Source of the DNA: an uncultured Candidatus Saccharibacteria bacterium | GTDB lineage: Bacteria; Patescibacteriota; Minisyncoccia; UBA6257; 2-01-FULL-56-20 | Reading direction: 5' to 3' | Length of the DNA stretch: 64,000 nucleotides | NCBI GenBank assembly: GCA_964484655.1 | Contig: CAZAFA010000002.1 | Location: 123,860-187,859, forward strand | Shown: positions 1-60,792 of the stretch, piece after piece | Numbering within the stretch: position 1 is the first letter of the stretch | Layout: every line of letters begins with the position of its first letter | Made by a program: the position numbers and the translations under genes | Notes under the pieces: model-generated | Told to the model about the DNA's origin: nothing | What the model saw: only the letters and a program-made list of their open reading frames with translations | Databases searched by the model: none

Positions 1-1
1 C

Positions 2-91
2 ATCCTCCCCTCGTTGCACGGCGGCTGGAAGGTGGCCGAGCTGCTCGCCGGCGCGACGCTGCCCCCGTCCATCTTTGACGTCCCGGCCTAG
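2..91 (+). CDS. 3' end of an unidentified protein-coding gene (partial, enters from upstream of the window)
   Basis: Open frame from the window edge to TAG at about 89-91 (...ILPSLHGGWKVAELLAGATLPPSIFDVPA*). It is too short to identify. Confidence 0.25.
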   Translation: MLPSLHGGWKVAELLAGATLPPSIFDVPA

Positions 92-177
92 CCGCATTGA
101 CCGCGGGCGGGAGCGGCTCTCTAATACGTGCAGCTAGGCTACCCCATAGCGAAAACTGATGAATAAGGAGACCCCGA

Positions 178-963
178 ATGAATAAGAAGCAATCGGGCGT
201 CCTGACGCCCGACGAGATACTTGAGCAGTACCGCTCCCAGCTCCGGTTCATCACGCCGGAATTCCTGGCGACGGTGGACTTCGGCAGCATGACCGGACTC
301 GGCGACGACATCGTCTTCGCCCTGACCTACATGCAACGCATCGAGGATGCCGTCTGGGGCGTGTATTTCAACGAGCTGATGTCCACGCCGACCGGCAAGA
401 ACCCGTGCGTCGCGGCATTCCTGGAGACGTGGAAGGAGGAGGAAGGGCGCCACGCCGCCGCCCTCGACCGCGTGCTCGCGCTCTACGAGCGTCCCCCGCT
501 CGTTCCCGGACGCAACCGCGACAGCGGCTGGGCGGCCCGCCTGACTGGCGAGCGGCTCTTCGGCGCCGTGCACATGGCGTTCGGCGCGACCAACGAGCTG
601 ATGACCGCATTCGGCTACCGGATGCTCGCGCAGCGGTGCGGCAACCCCGAGCTCGCGCGCCTCCTGCAGGCGATCGCGAAGGAGGAGGCGATCCATTACG
701 CGTTCTACTACCGGATGGCGCGCTACTACCTGGAGCGCTCCCGGGTCGCTCGCTGGCTCACGCTCCATCTGCTCAACCTGTTCGCGATCGGCGTCGGCAT
801 CGGCGTCGTCGCGGCGCGGGACGGGCACCAGGTCATGCGGATACTCTTCGCCGGCAAGCGGGACGAGTTCGTGCAGGCCGTGCAGAAGCCGATCGCGAAG
901 CTGCCGGGACTGGGAGGGTTCACTGCCATGCAGAGCCTCGTGGAACGGGCGCAGATCGCCTGA
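178..963 (+). CDS. ferritin-like diiron-carboxylate protein (hypothetical)
   Basis: Two E-x-x-H motifs (EEEGRH, KEEAIHY) spaced as in ferritin-like diiron proteins. The antisense ORF 139..1008 is Arg-rich, as is typical for GC-rich antisense frames. Confidence 0.5.
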   Translation: MNKKQSGVLTPDEILEQYRSQLRFITPEFLATVDFGSMTGLGDDIVFALTYMQRIEDAVWGVYFNELMSTPTGKNPCVAAFLETWKEEEGRHAAALDRVLALYERPPLVPGRNRDSGWAARLTGERLFGAVHMAFGATNELMTAFGYRMLAQRCGNPELARLLQAIAKEEAIHYAFYYRMARYYLERSRVARWLTLHLLNLFAIGVGIGVVAARDGHQVMRILFAGKRDEFVQAVQKPIAKLPGLGGFTAMQSLVERAQIA

Positions 964-1006
964 GAGAAAGGGACCGCGGAAGCGGTCCCTTTGGTACGAT
1001 TCCTCC

Positions 1007-1654
1007 ATGGAACCGCTGCAGCTGCAGGATATGAAGGCGATCGAGCGGAAGCTCTACCTGAAGCTGGTCATGAAGGGGCACCTGCACCTCGAGGGGTCGG
1101 CCTCACCGGAGGAGCTCCTCTATCTCTACGAGACCGCCCGTCGCGAAGGCGCGCGCCTCATAGGCGAGATCGGCTTCAACGCGGGATTCTCGAGCTACGC
1201 GCTCCTCGCCACGCATCCCGAGGCGCGGGTCGTCTCCTTCGACATCGGCGACCACGGCTACGTCGGCGACGCCAAGGCGCTCATTGACCGCGAGTTCCCG
1301 GGCAGGCACGAGCTCGTCTTCGGCGACTCCCGCGAGACGCTGCCGCGGTTCGCGGACGAGCGTCCGGAGCGCTTCGACTTTTTCTTCATCGACGGCGGGC
1401 ACGACTACGAGGTCGCCTCCGCGGACATACGGAACGCGCGATCGGTCTGCCGCGAGGGCGCGGCGATCGTCATGGACGACCTCGTCCCCTGGCTTCCCTG
1501 GGGCGCGGGACCGACGCGCGCCTGGGAGGAAGCGCTCGCCGCGGGGGCGATACGGCAGGAGGAGCTCGTGCAGGACGGCATGCGCGTCGAGAAGGTTACC
1601 GAGCCCGCGGGACGGGCCTGGGCGCTCGGGAGGTTCAACGGATCAGCAGGATAG
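1007..1654 (+). CDS. class I SAM-dependent methyltransferase (Methyltransf_24 / O-MTase family 3-like)
   Basis: IGEIGFNAGFSS (glycine-rich SAM motif I), VVSFDIG, DFFFIDGGHDYE; about 215 aa. Confidence 0.7.
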   Translation: MEPLQLQDMKAIERKLYLKLVMKGHLHLEGSASPEELLYLYETARREGARLIGEIGFNAGFSSYALLATHPEARVVSFDIGDHGYVGDAKALIDREFPGRHELVFGDSRETLPRFADERPERFDFFFIDGGHDYEVASADIRNARSVCREGAAIVMDDLVPWLPWGAGPTRAWEEALAAGAIRQEELVQDGMRVEKVTEPAGRAWALGRFNGSAG

Positions 1655-2207
1655 CCGCGATGCCCGCTGCGAGTACCAGCGCTTCCAAAAGAAGGAGCCG
1701 GAGGTAGGGCCGCTGCGGACGCAGGTACATGTCCCGCAACCAGTTAGGATTGCCATAGCGCGCCGCGGCCGCGCGCTGCTGCTCCGGCGTCCACACCGCG
1801 ACGAGATTATGGAGCGTGAGCGAGGCGTCTCCCACCGGCTCGCTGAGGAACTTGTAGTAGTTGCGCGAGAAGGGGCGCAGCCAGGCGATGCCCCACCCGA
1901 TGCCGATGCTGTCGTGGACGAAATGCGCAACTGAAAGGAACGCGAACAGCCCTGCGACCGCCGGCCCAGCGACCGCCCATGCGAGCGAGGTCCCGATCGG
2001 CACGTACAGGAGCGGGACGTGCAGGAGGTCGCGATGCTCCATGTCCATCCGGTGCAAGCTGCGACGGCGCACGGCCTGGATCACCGCGTCGAGGTCCGGC
2101 AGGAGCACGAACAGGACCGCCATGAGCTCGCTCGGCAGGAGCGGGATGCCGGTCAGGCGGTGAAAGAGGGCGCCTGCCAGGAGGCCGATGCCGATATCGA
2201 GAGGCAT
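1635..2207 (-). CDS. membrane-bound metal-dependent hydrolase-like protein (YdjM/DUF457-like)
   Basis: Multi-TM hydrophobic profile with His/Asp-rich loops (HRMDMEH, HFVHD). Confidence 0.4.
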   Translation of the reverse strand: MPLDIGIGLLAGALFHRLTGIPLLPSELMAVLFVLLPDLDAVIQAVRRRSLHRMDMEHRDLLHVPLLYVPIGTSLAWAVAGPAVAGLFAFLSVAHFVHDSIGIGWGIAWLRPFSRNYYKFLSEPVGDASLTLHNLVAVWTPEQQRAAAARYGNPNWLRDMYLRPQRPYLRLLLLEALVLAAGIAAILLIR

Positions 2208-2329
2208 AGGCGGAGTATAGGCGATTCTTTGACACCGGAGCCCGCAATACCTAGGATTCGCCCGAACCTGTAGTCATTACGACAGCCATTCAGAAGTATC
2301 GCGTTAACAGCCAGATCACCGCACCCGAA

Positions 2330-2800
2330 GTGCGGATCGTTGGAGAGGACGGCGAGAGCCTCGGGGTGTTCCCCCTGAAGGAGGCGCTCGCCAAGGCGGA
2401 CCCCGAGCGCGGGATTGACCTCATCGAGGTCGTCCCCCACGCGCGGCCGCCCGTCGCCAAGCTCATGAGCTTCGACAAGTTCCGCTACCTCCAGGACAAG
2501 GAGGAGAAGCGGCTGAAGCAGGCGGCGAAGGGTTCCTCCATCAAGCAGATCCAGGTGACCGCCCGTGCCGCCGAGCACGACTGGCTCACCAAGGTGAAGC
2601 AGCTGGACACGTTCCTCGAAGAGGGCCATCCCGTGGAAGTGCAGATGAAACTGCGCGGACGCGAGAAGAGCCCGGGCATGCAGGGATGGGTCAGGGAGCG
2701 CCTCGACGCGTTCCTCGGGATGATCTCCGTCGAGTTCAAGGTGATCATGCCCGCGCGGCCCGGAGGCCGAGGCGTGATCATGCAGATCGGCAAGAAGTAA
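2330..2800 (+). CDS. infC: translation initiation factor IF-3
   Basis: VRIVGEDGESLGVFPLKEALAKA...IDLIEV...AKLMSFDKFRY matches the IF-3 N- and C-domains. The track start is GTG at 2330. The true start is probably an upstream in-frame AUU/ATT near 2276-2288 (IAQKYRVNSQITAPE...), as in IF-3 genes. Confidence 0.85.
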   Translation: MRIVGEDGESLGVFPLKEALAKADPERGIDLIEVVPHARPPVAKLMSFDKFRYLQDKEEKRLKQAAKGSSIKQIQVTARAAEHDWLTKVKQLDTFLEEGHPVEVQMKLRGREKSPGMQGWVRERLDAFLGMISVEFKVIMPARPGGRGVIMQIGKK

Positions 2801-2819
2801 CCACCAAACCACCATCACC

Positions 2820-3008
2820 ATGGCAACGAAGGCAAAGACGAAGGACGCGGTCGGGGACCGCTTCAAGGTAACCAAGAACGGGAAGGTGCTCCGCCGGTCC
2901 ATGGGCATCGGCCATTCGCGCACCCGCCAGACGAAGAAGAGCCTCCTGGCAAAGCGCTCCCACAAGCCGGTCTCCGGCGTCACCCACAAGGAGCTGAAGG
3001 CCTACTAG
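2820..3008 (+). CDS. rpmI: 50S ribosomal protein L35
   Basis: 62 aa, MATKAKTK...GKVLRRSMGIGH...; immediately downstream of infC. Confidence 0.95.
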   Translation: MATKAKTKDAVGDRFKVTKNGKVLRRSMGIGHSRTRQTKKSLLAKRSHKPVSGVTHKELKAY

Positions 3009-3045
3009 CCAAGCGAAATAAGGCCTGTTAGAGTAACCGCCACCA

Positions 3046-3399
3046 ATGCCAAGAGTTAAGCGGGGTACCATAGCCCACAAGCGTCGCGAGAAGATCCTCA
3101 AGCTCACCAAGGGCTTCAAGTGGGGCCGCAAGAGCAAGGAGCGCGCGGCCAAGGAAGCCCTCCTCCACGCCGGCGTCCACGCCTTCCAGGGACGCAAGGA
3201 GAAGAAGCGGACCAACCGCGGCCTCTGGAACATCCGCATCAACGCCTCCCTCCGCGCCGGCGACGAGCCGATGAGCTACAGCGTCTTCATCAAGAAGCTG
3301 AAGGACGCCAACATCGGCCTCAATCGCAAGGTGCTCGCCGAGATGGCGGACAAGCGCCCCGAGGCCTTCGCCGAGGTGGTCGCGATGGTCCGGAAGTAA
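3046..3399 (+). CDS. rplT: 50S ribosomal protein L20
   Basis: MPRVKRGTIAHKRREKILKLTKGF...; 117 aa; canonical infC-rpmI-rplT order. Confidence 0.95.
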   Translation: MPRVKRGTIAHKRREKILKLTKGFKWGRKSKERAAKEALLHAGVHAFQGRKEKKRTNRGLWNIRINASLRAGDEPMSYSVFIKKLKDANIGLNRKVLAEMADKRPEAFAEVVAMVRK

Positions 3400-3414
3400 A
3401 CCCGACCGAGTGTC

Positions 3415-3450
3415 GCAACAGAGCCTGGGATTCCCAGGCTCTGTTGCTAA
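3415..3450 (+). terminator. rho-independent terminator-like hairpin after rplT
   Basis: 15-bp perfect stem GCAACAGAGCCTGGG / CCCAGGCTCTGTTGC with a 3-nt loop, followed by a T-containing tail (taattcg). Confidence 0.6.
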
Positions 3451-3511
3451 TTCGAGGAATTATCGTATAAGAAGGTCAGCTGTCATCCCTGATGACAGGA
3501 GGAAAATAAAT

Positions 3512-3997
3512 ATGAAAGAAAAAGAAGCTTCCATCGTGAAGCGAACGAAATTCAGCGGAAGCGTTCCTGCCCGGCACGGAGCGCGTACGATCAAGAACTG
3601 GCGGAGCGGCCTGCTGCACGAGGTCGTAGGCAGCATCGCCCTTCTTGGCAACGAGCCGGACTGGACGGAAACCGAGGCCGTCGCCGTCGAGGAATACGAG
3701 CTCGTCGGAAGCGGCACGTTCAAGGAAGTCTTCCGCGCCATCGGCAAAGTCTCGGGACTTATCTGGACCGAGGACCAGTTCATCGCGCTGCTCGAGCACA
3801 ACTGCGAGCAGCTCTACGGAGCGCAGTCGTATTTCGCGCTGGTATGGGCGGACGGCCACCAGGTCGCCGTCATGCGCTTCGACAAGGTCGGCGAGTACGC
3901 CTTCGACCACTGCGTATATCCGTGGGAGGATGCGACGAAATGGGATGCGCGCGGAATCCCGCCGCGCTATCTCGTGCCTGAAGTGTCGGCACGCTAG
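3512..3997 (+). CDS. hypothetical protein (161 aa)
   Basis: AGGAGG 8 nt upstream of ATG at about 3512. The upstream 34 codons of the track ORF run through the terminator hairpin and are unlikely to be coding. No recognisable motifs. Confidence 0.5.
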   Translation: MKEKEASIVKRTKFSGSVPARHGARTIKNWRSGLLHEVVGSIALLGNEPDWTETEAVAVEEYELVGSGTFKEVFRAIGKVSGLIWTEDQFIALLEHNCEQLYGAQSYFALVWADGHQVAVMRFDKVGEYAFDHCVYPWEDATKWDARGIPPRYLVPEVSAR

Positions 3998-15497: not shown

Positions 15498-15537
15498 ACG
15501 CGCGAAAAATACCAGTTTCTAGGCAGCTCCCACCATA

Positions 15538-15566
15538 TTGACAATTATCCACCGATGTACTAGGAT
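15538..15566 (+). promoter_or_regulatory. sigma70-like promoter (TTGACA-N17-TAGGAT)
   Basis: Located in an AT-richer intergenic region divergent from ruvB. Confidence 0.4.
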
Positions 15567-15572
15567 ACCGTT

Positions 15573-15850
15573 GTTCCGACCAGAACTACGTTCTTTCTGA
15601 CCTGGGGGCAGGATGTGGCCTTCAGTCCCTAGGATGATCCGGTTTCGGCTAGGTCATTCCTCGAGGCGCATCCATTTCTTCCGACCTGCTCGGAAGTTAC
15701 CACTCTTTCGCGTGTCCCCAGGTCAGAGGGAAAGTCATTGGAACAAGAACGCTCACCGCACGTTGCGTGAGCCCGAAATGAAATAAAGACTGACACCCGA
15801 ACACAATTGTGAAGAGCCCCCGCTGCGAAGCGGGGGCTCTTGTTCCTCTT
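15573..15850 (+). ncRNA. candidate structured ncRNA (about 280 nt, unidentified)
   Basis: Lies between the promoter-like element and a GC hairpin + U-tract (GAGCCCCCGC-TGCGAA-GCGGGGGCTC TTGTTCCTCTTT). Long-range 11-nt complementarity CTGACCTGGGG (about 15598) with CCCCAGGTCAG (about 15716). Several perfect local hairpins (CTTCCGA-CCTGC-TCGGAAG). No convincing start codon or RBS. Confidence 0.35.
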
Positions 15851-16159
15851 TATGCTCCCTTTATCGGTCTCCTGCAATGGTGCGCGGCACAGCTCATCGC
15901 CTACCTCGACCGGAAGTTCGCCTCTCTCGAGGATATCTTCGCGACCAAGGAAGAATTGCATGATCTTGAATCCTGGTTGATGCTCAGGTTTCGAAAGATC
16001 GATGAGAAATTCGACGCACTCACTGGCTATCTCGACAAGCAGACGACGGAGATGAAGACGTTCTATCAGGAGCTCGCGATGACGCAGGGCCGGGTGGACC
16101 GGCGTGAGCGCTGGCACCATGCGGTCGCCGACAAGCTCGGCATGAAGCTCGAAAGCTGA
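15809..16159 (+). CDS. small hypothetical coiled-coil protein (possibly only the distal about 59 codons, from MLRFRK at about 15980)
   Basis: The GTG start in the track lies inside the terminator hairpin. The distal part has protein-like charged/helical composition. Followed by a strong terminator. Confidence 0.3.
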   Translation: MKSPRCEAGALVPLYAPFIGLLQWCAAQLIAYLDRKFASLEDIFATKEELHDLESWLMLRFRKIDEKFDALTGYLDKQTTEMKTFYQELAMTQGRVDRRERWHHAVADKLGMKLES

Positions 16160-43026: not shown

Positions 43027-43054
43027 GTAATAATCCGGCTATACGTCGCAAAAT

Positions 43055-43299
43055 CCTGACAAACATATTTGTCAGGATTTTTCGTAGATGTTTAGCGATA
43101 AACATCTAAAGTGCGAAAAATGTTTAGCGACAAACATTTTTTGCTCGATTTCAGACAATTTTGTTTAGCGACAAACATTTTTCCGCTGACAAACATGTTT
43201 GTCAGACAAAAATTTGTTTAGCGACAAACATTTTCTTGAAAAATACGCATAGGAATGTTTAGCGACAAACATTTTTCCTCTGACAAACATGTTTGTCAG
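43055..43299. repeat. AT-rich array of eight palindromic sites: five B-type and three A-type
   Basis: B-type: ATGTTTAGCGA[C/T]AAACAT, five direct copies at about 43087, 43119, 43161, 43213 and 43254. A-type: CTGACAAACAT[G/A]TTTGTCAG, two perfect 20-bp palindromes at about 43186 and 43280, plus the variant CCTGACAAACATATTTGTCAGG at 43055. Confidence 0.85.
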
Positions 43300-43426
43300 A
43301 TGTCGCAAAATATCAATCTGTATTCTCTTTATTCCGGAATGGCGCATCCGGATTGCCTCGGTTCGAAAGTGAAGGCAATAATAGGTGCGTACTAAAACCA
43401 AATAGGTACAACTCAATAACAATCTA

Positions 43427-47670: not shown

Positions 47671-47733
47671 GGAATGTTTAGCGCCAAACATTCCTGACAA
47701 ACATGTTTGTCGCCCGGATTTGCTCGATTTCTG
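47671..47733. promoter_or_regulatory. second copy of the B+A palindrome module plus the shared 12-mer TTGCTCGATTTC
   Basis: GGAATGTTTAGCGCCAAACATTCC immediately followed by CTGACAAACATGTTTGTCG and TTTGCTCGATTTC; same arrangement as at 43119-43152 and 43254-43299. Confidence 0.8.
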
Positions 47734-47897: not shown

Positions 47898-47971
47898 GGC
47901 ACCCATAGCTCAACGGTTAGAGCAGTCGTCTTATACACGACCGGTTCCTGGTTCGAGTCCAGGTGGGTGCA
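47898..47971 (+). tRNA. tRNA with anticodon TAT (Ile-UAU type)
   Basis: Acceptor GCACCCA/TGGGTGC, D-arm GCTC-AACGGTTA-GAGC, anticodon arm GTCGT-CTTATAC-ACGAC, T-arm CCTGG-TTCGAGT-CCAGG, discriminator A; CCA not encoded. Confidence 0.7.
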
Positions 47972-47974
47972 CAG

Positions 47975-54820: not shown

Positions 54821-55219
54821 ATGACCAAGCAACCGAACCGGGAGAAGTACGTGGATGGATTCGTTTTCTCGGTGCCCGAGAAGAACGTGGCCGCATACAA
54901 GAAGATGGCGCGCGAAGGAGCGCGGATCTGGAAGCAGTTCGGCGCTCTCGATTACAAGGAGTGCAAGGGAGATGAGCTCGTTCCCAAGAAGGCGCCGGGC
55001 ATGCCCGTGCCGCTCACGTTCACGAAGATCGCCGGCGCGAAGAAGGGAGAGACCGTGTGGTTCTCGTTCATCACGTTCAAGAGCAAGGCGCACCGCAATC
55101 AGGTGAACAAGAAGGTCATGCAGTACTTCAACGAGAAGTACGCGGACAAGAAGGACGAGCCGATGCCGTTCGACGTTAGGCGGATGGCGTACGGAGGATT
55201 CTCGGTCGAGGTCGATTGA
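54821..55219 (+). CDS. DUF1428-family protein
   Basis: EKYVDGFVFSVPEKNVAAYKKMAREGARIWKQFGAL resembles the DUF1428 family; 132 aa. Confidence 0.65.
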   Translation: MTKQPNREKYVDGFVFSVPEKNVAAYKKMAREGARIWKQFGALDYKECKGDELVPKKAPGMPVPLTFTKIAGAKKGETVWFSFITFKSKAHRNQVNKKVMQYFNEKYADKKDEPMPFDVRRMAYGGFSVEVD

Positions 55220-55241
55220 GGAAGAGGCCAGGCCAGAAATC

Positions 55242-55272
55242 TTGACTTACAACATATAAGTCAGCATTATCC
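55242..55272 (+). promoter_or_regulatory. sigma70-like promoter (TTGACT-N17-CATTAT) inside a near-palindrome
   Basis: CTTGACTTACAACATATAAGTCAGCATTAT. Confidence 0.4.
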
Positions 55273-55625
55273 TCCTCGGTAGATTGGTAACTCAAAGCAA
55301 GGGTCGCGAAGACGGCTTGGCGTCTCGGGGTTCGATCCCCCGTGGAGAACGGTTCCAGCTGACTGATGCGAGGGTGTGAGCAGTAGATAAGGAGGGAGAG
55401 TATGAAACCCGGAAACGAACCGGTGTGGACTCGCCACTGAAAAACCTCCTCTCACATCTGCGTCAGCTCATCGGTATCAGGGACGAGTATACGCGGTGCG
55501 TGCCGGTCCAGGTTATCGGCAGCTCTTACGAGCATTCGCTACTGCAGGCCACGGTCTGATGCAGATATCGCAGGGAACCCCAACTATGGAACAGGCTCAC
55601 CGCACGGTGAGCCTGTTTTCGTTTC
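55273..55625 (+). ncRNA. candidate structured RNA with tRNA-like T-arm and an SD/uORF/anti-SD unit (unidentified)
   Basis: T-arm-like CGGGG-TTCGATC-CCCCG at about 55326-55342. AAGGAGGG, then ATG opening a 12-codon ORF (MKPGNEPVWTRH*). The downstream CCUCCU is complementary to the SD. Terminal hairpin CAGGCTCACCG-CAC-GGTGAGCCTG + TTTTCGTTT (about 55591-55625). No plus-strand gene downstream. Confidence 0.35.
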
Positions 55626-55632
55626 CGCCAGC

Positions 55633-56982
55633 CTAGAAGTCCTCGGCGACCTCGCGCTGCGGCACGCGGCGCTGGTCCGTCGCAAGCGTGAACCAGAACG
55701 TCGAGCCGCGCCCGACCTCCGATCCGACGCCCATCTGGCCGCCGTGCGCGCGGACGATGTTGCTCGCGATGAAGAGGCCGAGGCCCGTGCCGCCCGCCAC
55801 CGCCTTGCGCGCGTTCTCGGCGCGGAAGAACTTCGTGAAGAGCTTGCCGACATCCTTCGCGTCGATGCCGATGCCGGTGTCGCGGACGGAGATCTTCACG
55901 TACGGCTCGTTCGGGACAGCCTCCGCTTTCACCGTGATCTCGCCGCCCCTCACGTTGTAGCGCATCGCGTTCTCGATGAGATTGTTGATGACCATCGAGA
56001 TCTTCCCCTTGTCGAGGAACGCTGGCGGAAGCTGGACGGTCGGGCGGTCGAAGTAGAGCTTGAGCCCGGCCGCCTCGACCACCGGCATCGCCCTGCCGAG
56101 CTCCTCGTCGAGCATGGCCACGACGTCCGTCGGCGCGAAGGCGTAGCCGAAGCGGCCCTCCTCGATCTTGGCGACGCCGAGCAGGTCTTCGGCAGTGCGG
56201 ATGAGGCTGCGCACCGAGGAGAGCGTCTGGTCCGCGAGCGACTTGTCGTCCGGCCCGAGGGTAGCGCTGCTCGCGAGCGACTCGAGCGCCCAGCTGATCT
56301 CGGTGAGCGGCGTGCGGATCTGATGGCTCGCGACGGTGACGAACTCGCCCTTGCTGCGGATGAGCTCGATCTGGCGCGTGCGGTCGCGGACGATCTTGAG
56401 GAAGCCCCGGTGCTCGGGAAGCGTGATCGTGCTGACCCGGTAGTGGAGCTCCGGGTCGGAGAAGGTGAGGTCGACGACCTGCACGCCCTGGCCGGTCGTC
56501 TCGCGCGGGATCGCGAGCGGCGCGAGCGAGGGATACACGATCTGCACGAGACGGACGTACCGCGCGTCCTTCTGGGTGAGTTGCGGCGTGATGAGGAAGT
56601 TGCCGAGCTCCTCGCGCGGGATGCCGAGGAGTGCGACCGCCGCCTCGTTGGCGAACGTGATGCGGAAGAGGCCGTCGTACGCGAAGGCCGCGTCGTCGAG
56701 CGCGTTGAGTATGGCGTCGGCGTCGCCGAGATGGCCGCCGAGGCTTCCGGTCGCGTGCGATTCGGCCGGAGCGCTCGCGGACGAGGCCGGGGAGGAGAAG
56801 TACCGCTCGAGGAGCGCTCCCACGAGCACGAGCGTCGCGAACGCGGCGAGCGGCACGGCGAACAGGCCGAGCTGGAAGCCGACGGTCAGCCAGATGGCGA
56901 CCGAGGCTGCGGCGACGAGGCCGATGCGGACGAGAAGAGCAGGAGTGGGACGGATCATGCGAATCGTTCCAGCGATCCCCAA
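55633..56982 (-). CDS. two-component sensor histidine kinase (2 TM, PAS-like, HisKA, HATPase_c)
   Basis: H-box HQIRTPLTEI; N, G1 and G2 boxes (NLIENAMRY, DTGIGI, GGTGLGL). Confidence 0.85.
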   Translation of the reverse strand: MGIAGTIRMIRPTPALLVRIGLVAAASVAIWLTVGFQLGLFAVPLAAFATLVLVGALLERYFSSPASSASAPAESHATGSLGGHLGDADAILNALDDAAFAYDGLFRITFANEAAVALLGIPREELGNFLITPQLTQKDARYVRLVQIVYPSLAPLAIPRETTGQGVQVVDLTFSDPELHYRVSTITLPEHRGFLKIVRDRTRQIELIRSKGEFVTVASHQIRTPLTEISWALESLASSATLGPDDKSLADQTLSSVRSLIRTAEDLLGVAKIEEGRFGYAFAPTDVVAMLDEELGRAMPVVEAAGLKLYFDRPTVQLPPAFLDKGKISMVINNLIENAMRYNVRGGEITVKAEAVPNEPYVKISVRDTGIGIDAKDVGKLFTKFFRAENARKAVAGGTGLGLFIASNIVRAHGGQMGVGSEVGRGSTFWFTLATDQRRVPQREVAEDF

Positions 56983-59423
56983 CGGGATCCGGCGCGCACG
57001 TCGACCGAGAGCGGCACGCCGAGCTCCGGCATCACCCCCTCCATCGCCGCGCGGATGCGCGGAACGAGCTCCTTCATGCTACCCGTCCGCACCTCGAGCA
57101 GCAATTCGTCATGGATCGTGAGGAGGATATGCGCGTCGTCGCCGGCGCTCACGAGGTCGCGTACCGCGATCATGGCCAGCTTGGCGATGTCGCCGCCGAG
57201 GCCCTGCACGGGCTGGTTGATGGCTGCGCGCTCGATCTCGGCCATGCGCCACGAGGGCGCGCTGCTCGCGAGCTCGGGGAAGTAGCGCCGCCTGCCCGTG
57301 CGCGTCTCGGTGTAGCCGGTCTTCCGCGCGGCGGCGAGGATCTCCTCCTGCCAGCGCTTCACGGCACCGAACCGCTCGAAGTAGCGCGCGATGAACGTGG
57401 CCGCCTCGTTCTTGGGAAGGCCGCTCGCCTTCGCGAACGCGGTAACGCCCATGCCGTAGACGAGGCCGAAGTTCAGCGTCTTGGCGATGCGCCGCTCCTC
57501 CTTGGTGACGGCGTCCTGGTCCTTGCCGAGCACGACCGCCGCGGTGGCCGCGTGGATGTCCTCACCGTTGCGGAACGCGCGCGTCATGGCCTCGTCGCCC
57601 GAGAGCGCCGCGACGATGCGCAGCTCCAGCTGCGAGTAGTCGAACGAGACGAGGCGGTAGCCGCGGCGCGCCACGAAGCAGTCGCGCAGGGGACGGCTCC
57701 ACGCGCTCTCCTGGGGGATGTTCTGGAGGTTGGGGTTGCGCGAGGAGAGGCGTCCCGTCGCCGCGCCGGTCTGGACGTACTCGGTGCGGAGCGTGCCTGC
57801 CTCGTCGACGCGCTCGAGGAGCGGCTCGACGAACGCGGTGCGGATCTTGAAGTGCTCGCGGTACGCGAGGATGAGCGGCACGACCGGATGCTGGTCGGTG
57901 ATCTCCTCGAGGATCTCCGCGCGCGTGGACTCCTTCCGCTTGCCCTTAACCTGGAGGTTGAGCGTGCGGAAGAGCACGTCGCCGACCTGCTTGGGGGAGT
58001 TGAGGTTGAACGTGCTGCCGGCGAGCGCGTAGACCTGCTGCTCGACCGAGGCGCAGGTTGCCGCGATCTCGCCCGCGAGCTTCTCGAGCGCCGCGCGGTC
58101 GACCTGGATGCCGCGCATCTCGGTCTCGGCGAGCACGCGGAGGACCGGCAGCTCGATATCCTCGTAGACGCGCGTCATGCCTTCGCGCTCGAGCGCGGCG
58201 CGCAGCTGGTGGCGCAGCGCGGCCGTATCCGCGTCATCGCCCGAGGCCACGACGCTGCGTACCGCATCCTCGCCGTACGCCTTCAGGTCCGGGTAGAGGA
58301 GCCAGGTGATGATGCCGAGGTCGTCGTAAGGCGGCAGGAGGTCGCGGCCGTTCGCCCAGAGCTCCTGCAGCGCTTCCTTGAGCGCGTAGCCCGCGACCGG
58401 CATGTCCGCTGGCCGCGAGTCCGGGTTCTCGAGATAGCTGTCGAGGTCGCAGACGGGCGCGGCATCGCCGCCAGCTTCCGCCTCCGTGCGCGCGAAAGAG
58501 CTCACGCGCGGCGCGGATTTCCGCGCGGCCTTCTTCGGCGCGACCGGCTTCGCGAGCGGATCCTTGGAGGCGAGCGCGGCGGCGAGGCTCTGGAAGCCGA
58601 CCTCGAAGAAGTAGTCGCGGAGGCCGCGGCGGTCCAGCTCGGTGACCGCCATCTCGTCGAAGCTCGGGAGCTCCACGTCGACGTTGGGCTCGAGGGTCGC
58701 GAGGACCAGCGACGCCCGCAGCTGCGTGCCGTCGTCGGGAAGCTTCGCCTTGAGCTTCGGCAGCTCGTCGAGGTGCGCGAGCAGCTCCTCGACCGTCGGA
58801 TACGTGTTCAGGAGCTGCGCCGCGGTCTTCGGGCCGATGCCCGGCACGCCCGGGATGTTGTCCGAAGTGTCGCCGACGAGCGCCTTGTAGTCGGGGATCT
58901 GCTTGGGGCGGATGCCGTACTTCTCGATGACGCCCGCCGTGTCCATCACGGCCGTGTCGGTCACGCCCTTCCTGAGGGTCCGCGCGACCACGGTGCCGTC
59001 GTCGACCAGCTGCAGCAGGTCCGAGTCGCTCGAGAGCATCTCGATGCGCAGGTCGGGCGTGCCGCGCAGGCGCGTCACGATCGTCGCGATCACGTCGTCC
59101 GCCTCGTAGCCGGCCATCTCCCGGAGCGGCACGCCGTATCGCGCGAAGAGCTCCTTGGCTTCGTCCATCTGGCTCGCGAGGTCGTCAGGCATCGGCGCGC
59201 GGTGCGCCTTGTAGCGGTCGTCGAGCGTCTTGCGGAAGGTAGGCGCCGGCGTGTCGGATGCCGCGACGACGTAGTCGGGGCCGGTGCGCAGGATCGCGAG
59301 GAGCAGCCGCGCGAGGCCGTATACCGCCTGGATGGGGCGGCCGTCGGGCGTGGTCAGCGGCGGCAGCGCGTGATAGGCGCGGTGGATGATCGAATGCGCG
59401 TCGATGATTAGGAGCTTCTTCAT
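56955..59423 (-). CDS. polA: DNA polymerase I (5'-3' exonuclease + polymerase; no recognisable 3'-5' proofreading motifs)
   Basis: Start at MKKLLIIDAHSIIHRAYHAL (FEN domain). Polymerase motifs A (DYSQLELR), B (RRIAKTLNFGLVYG) and C (HDELLLE). Length 822 aa. Confidence 0.9.
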   Translation of the reverse strand: MKKLLIIDAHSIIHRAYHALPPLTTPDGRPIQAVYGLARLLLAILRTGPDYVVAASDTPAPTFRKTLDDRYKAHRAPMPDDLASQMDEAKELFARYGVPLREMAGYEADDVIATIVTRLRGTPDLRIEMLSSDSDLLQLVDDGTVVARTLRKGVTDTAVMDTAGVIEKYGIRPKQIPDYKALVGDTSDNIPGVPGIGPKTAAQLLNTYPTVEELLAHLDELPKLKAKLPDDGTQLRASLVLATLEPNVDVELPSFDEMAVTELDRRGLRDYFFEVGFQSLAAALASKDPLAKPVAPKKAARKSAPRVSSFARTEAEAGGDAAPVCDLDSYLENPDSRPADMPVAGYALKEALQELWANGRDLLPPYDDLGIITWLLYPDLKAYGEDAVRSVVASGDDADTAALRHQLRAALEREGMTRVYEDIELPVLRVLAETEMRGIQVDRAALEKLAGEIAATCASVEQQVYALAGSTFNLNSPKQVGDVLFRTLNLQVKGKRKESTRAEILEEITDQHPVVPLILAYREHFKIRTAFVEPLLERVDEAGTLRTEYVQTGAATGRLSSRNPNLQNIPQESAWSRPLRDCFVARRGYRLVSFDYSQLELRIVAALSGDEAMTRAFRNGEDIHAATAAVVLGKDQDAVTKEERRIAKTLNFGLVYGMGVTAFAKASGLPKNEAATFIARYFERFGAVKRWQEEILAAARKTGYTETRTGRRRYFPELASSAPSWRMAEIERAAINQPVQGLGGDIAKLAMIAVRDLVSAGDDAHILLTIHDELLLEVRTGSMKELVPRIRAAMEGVMPELGVPLSVDVRAGSRWGSLERFA

Positions 59424-59875
59424 GACTCGTCCCAGGTCAGCGTGATGCGGCGCTCGCGCTCGTGCGCGCCGTGCTCGATCCGCACGTCGAGCTGCGGACC
59501 GAAGAGCTCGCCGCCGATCTCCGGCCATTCGACGACGACCAGGTTCTTCCGCTCGGCGAGGACCTCCTCCAGTCCGAGGCTCGCGAGCTCCTCGACGCTC
59601 CGCAGGCGGTACGCGTCGACGTGGTACGCATCGCGGAACGGGCCTCCCGCGAGCGGGTAGCGGTGCATGAGCAGGAAGGTCGGGCTCGCGATGGTCCCCT
59701 GGACGCCGAGCGCTCCCAGGAGGCCCTGCGTGAACGCCGTCTTCCCGGCGCCGAGCTCGCCGCGGAGCGTGACCAGGAAGGCGCGCTCACGCGGCATGCG
59801 CGCCAGGCGCTCCGCCGCGGCTGCGGCGAGCGCTTCGGTCTCCTCCGGCGCGTTCGTGATGACGGTCTCGTGCAT
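59420..59875 (-). CDS. tsaE: tRNA threonylcarbamoyladenosine biosynthesis protein TsaE
   Basis: P-loop GELGAGKTAFTQGL, conserved N-terminal ...EEATEALAAA...; stop overlaps the polA start. Confidence 0.8.
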   Translation of the reverse strand: MHETVITNAPEETEALAAAAAERLARMPRERAFLVTLRGELGAGKTAFTQGLLGALGVQGTIASPTFLLMHRYPLAGGPFRDAYHVDAYRLRSVEELASLGLEEVLAERKNLVVVEWPEIGGELFGPQLDVRIEHGAHERERRITLTWDES

Positions 59876-60338
59876 GGCGGAAAGCCGCGATGGCTAGCGC
59901 GGTCAGGATACCAGCCGTGCAGACGGCTGTCCCCAGAAGCCCGGGAATCATGCTTCCGCGCTCGAGCGGCGGCAGCGGCGGGATGGCGAAGCCGGGCCCG
60001 GCCGCGATGCCCGGCGTGGAACTCGCCCAGTAGCCGGCGTCGCCGACATGGAAGCCGTATCCCTCAGGCGCGGATCCGGCCCCGCGGACGGCCTGGACCG
60101 CCACATCCTTATAAAGGAGGGAGATCTCAGGCTCGCGGTTGCGGATCGAGGCGGTGCCGGCATAGGCGAGGCTGCAGCCGCCCGCCTGCAGGGAGCCCGA
60201 GAGCGCGAGCGTGCGCGGGCCGACCGTGAGCGCGTAGCCGTCGAGAAGGACGGGCGCATCTGTGCAGAACTCGACCCATTCCTTCCCTCGGTCGGTGCCG
60301 GGCGGGTTCGGGAGGATCTCGGTGATGCGCGGGTGCAT
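59787..60338 (-). CDS. lamin-tail-domain (LTD) protein with C-terminal TM + Arg-rich tail
   Basis: ITEILPNPPGTDRGKEWVEF (LTD signature). The C-terminal PPLPPLERG + hydrophobic helix + RHARDRHHER resembles a sorting-signal-like tail. Overlaps tsaE by about 88 nt. Confidence 0.55.
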   Translation of the reverse strand: MHPRITEILPNPPGTDRGKEWVEFCTDAPVLLDGYALTVGPRTLALSGSLQAGGCSLAYAGTASIRNREPEISLLYKDVAVQAVRGAGSAPEGYGFHVGDAGYWASSTPGIAAGPGFAIPPLPPLERGSMIPGLLGTAVCTAGILTALAIAAFRHARDRHHERAGGDRSARRSRGGAPGAHAA

Positions 60339-60382
60339 GACGGCAGTGTGACTGCGCGCATGCCGAGGCGTATGCTTCAGGC

Positions 60383-60647: not shown

Positions 60648-60649
60648 TG

Positions 60650-60722
60650 GGTGTCCGACCGGATTCGAACCGGCAACCGCCAGAGCCACAATCTGGAGCT
60701 CTACCATTAAGCTACGGACACC
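60650..60722 (-). tRNA. tRNA-His (anticodon GTG) with encoded G-1
   Basis: G(-1) + acceptor GTGTCCG/CGGACAC, anticodon arm CCAGA-TTGTGGC-TCTGG, T-arm GCCGG-TTCGAAT-CCGGT, discriminator C. Confidence 0.8.
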
Positions 60723-60792
60723 ATGCCGCGGAACTGTAGCATGCGTCCCAAATAGTGACAACAACAAACATACGTGGTATGGTTGCGCGCAC

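Follow-up and report, generated by a model that had tools for sequence, protein, structure and literature searches.

Several bacterial small RNAs, among them SgrS/SgrT, RNAIII/hld and SR1/SR1P, are dual-function genes that also carry a small open reading frame (ORF). Very short ORFs are found as well in the leader-peptide transcription attenuators of the trpL/hisL type. Here we describe a 413-nucleotide (nt) non-coding gap, positions 55220-55632 of a 64,000-nt stretch of DNA (hereafter, the window) from an uncultured Candidatus Saccharibacteria bacterium (contig CAZAFA010000002.1). The gap lies between a DUF1428-family gene and a histidine kinase gene. It resembles SgrS/SgrT-type units in being a stand-alone promoter-to-terminator arrangement of a few hundred nt with no downstream gene, and in carrying a very short ORF that follows a real Shine-Dalgarno (SD) sequence and is embedded in secondary structure. 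It differs from those units in lacking homology to described families in Rfam and in being a single-genome orphan predicted from sequence. The reading we favor, and hold only tentatively, is that the gap contains a lineage-specific, independently transcribed, mRNA-like small-ORF unit of ~350 nt, possibly a frameshifted remnant, in a variable genomic slot.

Three gene-boundary motifs carry this reading: a promoter, an SD sequence with its ATG start codon and an intrinsic terminator, each of which is rare in the window and which occur in the correct order on the same strand. All motif frequencies were calibrated within the same 64-kb window, with both strands scanned for the promoter pattern. 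The first motif is a sigma-70-type promoter on the plus strand, TTGACT-17-CATTAT (55242-55270), whose -35 box at 55242-47 and -10 box at 55265-70 place the predicted transcription start near 55277-55279. The pattern TTGAC[AT]-N16-18-NANNNT has four matches in the 64 kb, all of them (4/4) intergenic, and the remaining three face downstream plus-strand genes, so the unit is preceded by a putative co-oriented promoter of the class typical for this genome, as expected of an independent transcription unit. A general promoter scan returns 2 sites in 2 kb compared with 0.4 expected. Overlapping the -35 box and the spacer, an inverted-repeat search finds an AT-rich palindrome (55238-55268) with the perfect half-sites TGACTTA-N7-TAAGTCA at 55243-63, which is a possible operator. 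The window holds no second exact or near copy of the palindrome; the sole other match within 3 mismatches has all 3.

The second motif is a strong SD sequence, AAGGAGGG (55389-55396, plus strand), located 5-6 nt before an ATG. Motifs of the form AAGGAGG-N4-9-ATG occur three times in the window against an expectation of 0.46, and the other two open real genes; within the gap, the probability of so strong an SD-ATG pair is p = 0.0038 (5,000 shuffles of the gap). The ATG at 55402 opens a 12-codon ORF, MKPGNEPVWTRH, that ends with a TGA stop at 55438-40 (55402-55440, plus strand). The third motif is an intrinsic terminator (55590-55626, plus strand; -23.8 kcal/mol, z = -5.4) with a 12-bp GC-rich stem, a GCAC loop and the tail UUUUCGUUU. 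Its hairpin (55590-55617) is a perfect helix of 12-13 bp followed by TTCGTTT, the U tract is present on the plus strand only with none on the minus strand, and the structure forms with a probability of ~1 in the predicted transcript. Strong hairpin-plus-T terminators are found at five loci in the window, that of the gap included, and this one ends 15 nt before the kinase stop codon. The unit thus has a co-oriented intrinsic terminator downstream, as an independent transcription unit should.

Because these rare gene-boundary motifs are ordered and co-oriented, a stand-alone unit is well supported statistically, with expression itself a prediction. The first-pass annotation of the gap had proposed such a unit, with a strong terminator and no plus-strand gene downstream. 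Inspection of the sequence finds every motif that it listed, and the proposal holds at this level in each of these respects: the promoter, SD-ATG and terminator motifs are rare, specific to gene boundaries and ordered, the terminator is as strong as described and the next gene is the minus-strand histidine kinase. In the model that follows from this arrangement, RNA polymerase would start near 55278 at the sigma-70-type promoter, which may be controlled through the palindrome. A leader of ~125 nt with small hairpins would come next, followed by the strong, genome-typical SD and AUG (55389-55404) that would open the 12-codon ORF. The terminator would end the RNA just before the converging kinase gene and would also shield the polA-kinase operon from antisense read-through. 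In its present form, such a unit could make only a 12-aa peptide.

The ORF appears to be enclosed by RNA structure. Its SD, coding region and a downstream anti-SD element fall within a 115-nt imperfect hairpin (55356-55470, plus strand; minimum free energy -40.9 kcal/mol) that has a z-score of -2.57, with 1 of 200 shuffles being as stable. The anti-SD element, CCUCCU (55445-55450, plus strand), begins 5 nt past the stop codon and pairs with AGGAGG at 55390-95 with a predicted probability of 0.62-0.71, a value that agrees with the earlier description of an ORF caged between an SD and an anti-SD. The AUG at 55402 is predicted to be 97% unpaired. In the proposed unit the SD would be held by CCUCCU within the hairpin, and since it is paired in a helix, translation would need that helix to open. 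A second predicted stem-loop domain (55471-55566, plus strand) is not significant (z about -1.6 to -1.7).

The same structural data bear on the alternative that the gap encodes a lineage-specific non-coding regulatory RNA of ~350 nt, in which the 12-codon ORF would not be the functional product and the SD/anti-SD hairpin and CCUCCU/GGAGG motifs would act in RNA-RNA or ribosome interactions. Its own promoter and terminator without a downstream gene, the significance of the 115-nt hairpin and the presence of two CCUCCU and two GGAG(G) motifs in the gap are all consistent with such an RNA, as is the occurrence in the same window of a second promoter-to-terminator unit without an Rfam match (15538-15845). 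A mutually exclusive helix, 55456-66 with 55556-66, has also been counted in its favor. This helix, however, is 5.9 kcal/mol worse than the predicted fold, is essentially unpopulated and leaves the SD paired with the anti-SD. Because the helix is costly and does not free the SD, it gives no evidence for a riboswitch-like switch, and a switch of this kind was rejected. Neither the 5' domain nor the second domain is more stable than shuffles, there are no homologues and hence no covariation that can be assessed, and the perfect AAGGAGG-N6-AUG is more simply a translation start. A regulatory RNA with an idle ORF is therefore considered unlikely. Identities as 6S RNA, signal recognition particle RNA, RNase P RNA, Y-RNA or a group I or group II intron were also rejected, with no Rfam match to any of them in the gap.

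Attenuators of the trpL/hisL type share with the gap a short ORF and alternative helices (here 55358-69, 55456-67 and 55556-66), followed on the same strand by an intrinsic terminator. The gap differs from them in that there is nothing downstream to regulate, the next gene being convergent, and in that its peptide has no run of regulatory codons. Its alternative helix, besides its energetic cost, involves neither the terminator nor the SD.

Within the predicted leader lies a 17-nt hairpin with a 5-bp stem, CGGGG-TTCGATC-CCCCG (55326-55342, plus strand), that was first read as a canonical T-stem-loop and, together with the short ORF, as reminiscent of transfer-messenger RNA (tmRNA) or a tRNA-derived RNA. 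The hairpin is present as described, but its occurrence is at chance level and is not diagnostic. The window contains six hairpins that combine a 5-bp stem with a TTCRANN loop: four in real tRNAs, the one at 55326 and one at 43245 on the minus strand. Dinucleotide-shuffled windows contain 0.31 such hairpins on average with Watson-Crick pairs only and 1.5 when G-U pairs are allowed, and since the count is at chance level, the T-arm alone is no evidence of anything. In the predicted transcript the T-arm has a pair probability of 0.2-0.3, the segment 55270-55352 folds no more stably than shuffles (z = -0.6), and the T-arm segment folded from the predicted start is less stable than shuffles (z = +0.9). 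The hairpin is judged incidental.

Searches with models of tRNA and tmRNA give the same picture. With default settings, ARAGORN reports four tRNAs elsewhere in the window and none in the gap, and Rfam at gathering thresholds across the window reports those four tRNAs only. At E<=10, an Rfam search over 651 nt gives only noise on the terminator hairpin and no tmRNA family. A search at the same cutoff over 101 nt around the T-arm gives three plus-strand matches (5.6-13.5 bits against gathering thresholds of 42-84), namely mascRNA (13.5 bits, gathering 42.5), tmRNA_permuted (RF04321; 8.4 bits, gathering 47) and beta_tmRNA (5.6 bits, gathering 84), each of which aligns just the 17-nt hairpin. Covariance models of tmRNA, the permuted forms included, therefore match nothing in the gap beyond this bare hairpin. 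Several lower-grade calls were rejected as noise: a minus-strand match to a plastid leader model (12.2 bits against a gathering threshold of 65.7); at the 90% ARAGORN setting, a 'tRNA-Ala' that needs a 92-nt intron and takes its 5' half from within the DUF1428 coding sequence; at 70%, a minus-strand 'permuted tmRNA' extending into the kinase gene; and at 60%, a pseudo-tRNA (55272-55350) with an 8-nt anticodon loop and mismatched stems, for which three equally poor calls are found elsewhere in the same 550 nt.

The sequence around the hairpin likewise lacks the remaining parts of a tRNA-like domain. The T stem is followed by UGGAGAACGG, which provides neither a 7-bp acceptor with a G3:U70 pair nor an NCCA at the right distance; in the sequence after the T stem, UGGAGAACGGUUCCA, the sole CCA is located 12 nt past the stem rather than the expected 8. 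No complementary 5' acceptor strand with a D arm is present within 1.3 kb upstream, and no acceptor stem, CCA end, D arm or anticodon arm surrounds the T-arm. The only partial acceptor partner is UCCUCCU (55270-76), which forms 5 of 7 pairs with UGGAGAA (55343-49). This partner overlaps the -10 box and would fall before the predicted start, so that a real promoter here excludes a real acceptor stem, and vice versa. The earlier statements that no complete acceptor stem could be built and that the ORF does not end in an ALAA-type tag are both confirmed.

A divergent tmRNA of the circularly permuted, two-piece kind, or another tRNA-derived translational RNA, can be weighed against these results. 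Permuted tmRNAs (RF04321/RF01849-51) and the gap have in common a T-arm-like hairpin upstream of a short frame in one transcript of ~350 nt. The order of T-arm and ORF fits the permuted layout, with the hairpin corresponding to model positions 36-52 of 213 in RF04321, and no ssrA gene was seen in the 64-kb window. The gap unit differs in having no acceptor stem, G:U identity pair or CCA end, and no pseudoknot signal, resume-codon/tag architecture or conservation across the loci compared. Its ORF is preceded by an SD, starts with AUG and terminates in ...TRH, whereas a tmRNA tag is entered at a resume codon, with neither SD nor AUG, and finishes in a hydrophobic degron of the (A/L)AA type. No smpB gene occurs in the window. 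Neither the syntenic slot of the closest relative nor any of the other loci retrieved contains the element, and the sole exact 22-mer match is to an unrelated sequence, which is hard to square with a housekeeping RNA. With the model scores and ARAGORN calls given above, this identity is extremely improbable, and as far as sequence can show the tmRNA reading is already refuted.

Another explanation for the hairpin is a decayed tRNA gene or integration scar, in which 55270-55350 would be a tRNA remnant, possibly a duplicate of the attachment (att) site of an element that brought in the DUF1428 gene; the parent tRNA would carry the 3' end ...CGGGGTTCGATCCCCCGTGGAGAAC. The perfect T-arm, the AUUGGUAA stretch that resembles a D loop, the partial pairing of UCCUCCU with UGGAGAA, the pseudo-tRNA drawn by ARAGORN at 60% and the adjacency of DUF1428 genes to tRNA genes in several relatives are in keeping with a scar. 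Against it stand the defects of that ARAGORN call and the equally poor calls nearby, the failure of the Rfam models ever to reach past the 17-nt hairpin, the chance-level frequency of the T-arm and the missing acceptor partner with a D arm. In addition, none of the tRNAs in the window has this T-arm, and a matching direct repeat is likewise absent. A scar is accordingly regarded as highly improbable.

In Patescibacteria, some tRNA-Asn/Asp genes are split by a group I intron at position 35/36 and escape both ARAGORN and the Rfam model RF00028 (PMC13011429). Their 5' exon, which comprises the acceptor strand, D arm and anticodon stem up to position 35, is followed by the intron and then by a 3' exon that contains the T-arm (PMC13011429). 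The host belongs to the same phylum, and because standard models miss such genes, an isolated T-arm in a gap of this kind called for a comparison with them. The gap differs from this architecture in its spacing: in the split genes the T-arm follows an intron of group I size, whereas only 106 nt separate the DUF1428 stop codon from the T-arm here. A 5' exon and intron would therefore fall inside the DUF1428 coding sequence, a geometry that does not fit. An intron-split tRNA was rejected on this geometry and on the lack of a suitable 5' exon within 1.3 kb upstream; RF00028 has no match in the gap, although that model is reported to miss these introns (PMC13011429). From the combined results we conclude that the tRNA-like hairpin is a chance resemblance and that the gap, judged by its sequence, is neither a tmRNA nor a tRNA relic.

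The small-ORF unit that we favor may have had a longer coding region. Adjoining the ATG frame is a 44-codon frame from GTG to TGA (55425-55559, plus strand) that is weakly coding-like, with GC fractions by codon position of.62/.38/.73. With a codon score of +8.2, it comes close to the 95th percentile for non-coding frames (10.0) but falls well short of the mean for true genes. An SD is lacking for this frame, and 31 nt separate its stop from the terminator. Deleting one TG from the GTGTG tract at 55423-27 joins the ATG frame to this frame, giving 51 aa with a score of +9.4. Speculatively, then, the unit may be the remnant of an orphan gene of ~51 codons that was broken by a 2-nt TG slippage at 55423-27.

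Protein-level searches were consistent in finding no relative for any frame of the gap. Pfam returned nothing relevant, the only match being a weak one to Ribosomal_S11 (E = 0.06) from a different 46-aa frame. When the stop-to-stop frame was searched exhaustively with phmmer against 1.84 billion representative proteins, no real homologues emerged. The only matches obtained are two giant RCC1-repeat proteins with ~20-25 or more near-identical repeats, which match the 19 residues IGIRDEYTRCVPVQVIGSS weakly, each at <=24.6 bits. As the match score is summed over many near-identical repeats, this result is an artefact, and a tblastn search of the giants against the window does not recover the gap. 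A hidden protein gene or pseudogene with known relatives was rejected on the Pfam, phmmer and tblastn outcomes.

The gap is exceptional within its surroundings. The window has a GC content of 65%, and its nearest protein relatives are Patescibacteria of the Parcubacteria/Paceibacteria type. In the coding map, which is based on crude gene calling and leaves 7.3% of the window non-coding, the coding share is 92.5% and the median intergenic gap is 34 nt. Upstream of the gap lies the DUF1428-family gene (54821-55219, plus strand; 132 aa; Pfam PF07237, E=9e-28), and downstream lies a convergent gene for a histidine kinase with the Pfam architecture PAS-HisKA-HATPase_c (55633-56982, minus strand; stop codon 55633-35), which follows polA (56955-59528) on the minus strand as an operon. 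The gap is the sole one of >100 nt between convergent genes in the window, and since no promoter region is needed between convergent genes, its 413 nt stand out against the median. Its first 50 nt have a GC content of 42% compared with 65% for the genome. A Logan assembly of run SRR11845633 contains the gap DNA with 100% identity, and an NCBI contig of 219,649 bp likewise encodes the DUF1428 protein. The region is single-copy within the window, and on this basis a repeat or miniature inverted-repeat transposable element was rejected.

Comparison with relatives was performed from both flanks. For the DUF1428 gene, GTDB species representatives contributed 41 loci (42-72% identity), to which the three closest known relatives (73-76%) were added. 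In these relatives the DUF1428 gene is followed by another gene within 36-110 nt or directly by a terminator, which indicates that a 370-nt 3' untranslated region is not the norm for the family. For the kinase flank, relatives with kinase identities of 88, 79, 79 and 73% were used. In the closest of these (L043, 88%; Logan SRR17578869), the polA-kinase and aminotransferase genes are syntenic with the window, and the slot between aminotransferase and kinase is occupied by a 183-aa protein, an AbrB/MazE-like gene and a RelE/ParE-like ORF. At the nucleotide level, homology with the window ends 4 nt past the kinase stop codon; at the opposite border it fades out where the aminotransferase gene ends. 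Next to the kinase, the other relatives carry Pyr_excise (L044) or acetate kinase (L046), and the content of the slot differs in every relative sampled. With different contents and homology that ends at the borders, the DUF1428 gene and the 413 nt make up a genome-specific block within a slot subject to turnover. A 49-aa 'member' of the kinase cluster (P0243) led to an unrelated contig and was set aside.

Some of the compared loci have features of their own. The slot of the closest relative (L043 3238-3860) contains an AbrB/MazE-like antitoxin gene, a RelE/ParE-like ORF that is unannotated and a 183-aa protein that looks secreted, accessory genes that mark the aminotransferase-kinase interval as an accessory-gene hotspot. 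In five Patescibacteria metagenome-assembled genomes (L002, L013, L028, L029 and L042) the DUF1428 gene adjoins an upstream tRNA-Gln(CTG), and in another locus (L023) a tRNA-Gly(TCC) is located 75 nt downstream of it, which hints that the DUF1428 family travels with, or inserts beside, tRNA loci.

Searches of larger collections were also negative for the gap. Exact-pattern scans of IMG/VR and a blastn search of the gap against phage and plasmid collections gave no match, and an exact 22-mer scan of JGI metagenomes gave a single match, to an unrelated phage-like tRNA array (L049; JGI Ga0307374_10059237, 1-3812). This 3.8-kb contig, probably a phage tRNA array, has 8 tRNA genes and a tmRNA-like gene with a 27-aa tag. 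The 22-mer, CGGGGTTCGATCCCCCGTGGAG, lies there at ~2250-2310 in an uncalled tRNA-like stretch in which the complementary 5' strand ACUCCGU is present and the D arm is seemingly missing.

This turnover is the setting for a further alternative, that the gap is a non-functional spacer. It would consist of gene-turnover debris in a recombination-prone slot and would be transcribed, if at all, as the 3' untranslated region of DUF1428 down to a shared terminator; the promoter-, SD- and T-arm-like motifs would be leftovers or chance. The slot between aminotransferase and kinase holds different genes in every relative, the gap is conserved nowhere searched, the DUF1428 gene has no terminator of its own before 55590 and fold z-scores are weak outside the terminator, all of which a spacer would explain. 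A spacer does not readily account for three independent rare gene-boundary motifs that stand in the right order on the same strand and are otherwise found at true gene boundaries. Moreover, compact genomes of this kind rarely retain 400 nt of junk, and no other convergent gap exceeds 100 nt. Signals left behind by a gene that died recently would be compatible with a spacer as well as with the small-ORF unit that we favor. On balance we regard a mere spacer as somewhat unlikely.

Several observations weigh against an expressed small-ORF unit and keep our assessment tentative. At the promoter, the -10 box CATTAT fits the consensus at only 4/6 positions, and the fold of the whole transcript is marginal (z = -1.9). 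The codon-usage score of the 12-codon ORF is neutral (+0.4), and the +9.4 reached over 51 codons by the frameshift-joined ORF falls in the low tail of true genes. The gene caller behind the public contig calls no gene in the gap. Conservation is lacking at every level covered: blastn, nhmmer and tblastx detect nothing similar to the gap in the 41 DUF1428 loci and three closest relatives, the closest relative by kinase identity has no such unit in the syntenic slot, and no homologue of the gap DNA or of any of its reading frames was found in the databases and loci searched. Transcription, translation, the history of a frameshift and any function are accordingly what we infer from the motifs and the predicted pairing.

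A more elaborate proposal would give the T-arm a role. An RNA of ~350 nt, made from its own promoter and restricted to this Patescibacteria lineage, would serve as a riboregulator and at the same time encode a 12-aa peptide; the T-arm in its leader would be a handle for tRNA enzymes, and the micro-ORF would be gated by the SD/anti-SD helix. TruB, TrmA, RNase P/Z and the CCA-adding enzyme accept isolated T-arm minihelices, and in this proposal enzymes of this kind would process or stabilize the transcript. We consider such a combination quite improbable.

The window contains other loci of interest. In the gap between divergent genes at 15498-15979 is a second promoter-to-terminator unit with the same architecture, in which TTGACA-17-TAGGAT starts at 15538 and is followed ~270 nt on by a strong plus-strand terminator (15812-15841) with a 13-bp stem and a T tract. 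It contains GAGGGAAAGTC, which we take to be reminiscent of the P4 strand of RNase P; Rfam gives only terminator noise on this unit, which may be an unknown leader, riboswitch or small RNA. A 400-nt gap at 43027-43426 has a GC content of 36% compared with 65% for the genome and carries arrays of palindromes, CTGACAAACAT(A/G)TTTGTCAG in three copies and ATGTTTAGCGACAAACAT in about five, and looks like an iteron or operator array or a replication/partition site. A near-copy of the palindrome CTGACAAACAT(A/G)TTTGTCAG is located at 47694-47713, adjoining a tRNA-Gly. At 47899-47972 is a tRNA-Ile with the anticodon TAT (UAU) that scores 69.7 bits to the Rfam tRNA model; such a tRNA is unusual, as bacteria normally decode AUA with a lysidine-modified CAU tRNA. 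The 507-nt 'gap' at 59876-60382 has a GC content of 70% and is probably a gene missed by the crude caller. Near it, at 60733-60783, are back-to-back promoter-like sites, TTGTCA-17-TACAGT with an extended TG, that face a tRNA-His (60649-60721).

The locus offers a useful negative lesson. Chance alone yields a perfect T-arm hairpin about once in every 200 kb of this genome, so that such a hairpin should not, by itself, be read as a relic of a tRNA or tmRNA; genome-calibrated promoter, SD and terminator motifs, by contrast, proved informative at this locus. To our knowledge, almost nothing is known of RNA-level or micropeptide regulation in ultra-small Patescibacteria. If expressed, the unit would be among the very few candidate small-ORF or small RNA genes described in these organisms, and it would illustrate the birth or decay of orphan mini-genes in variable genomic slots.

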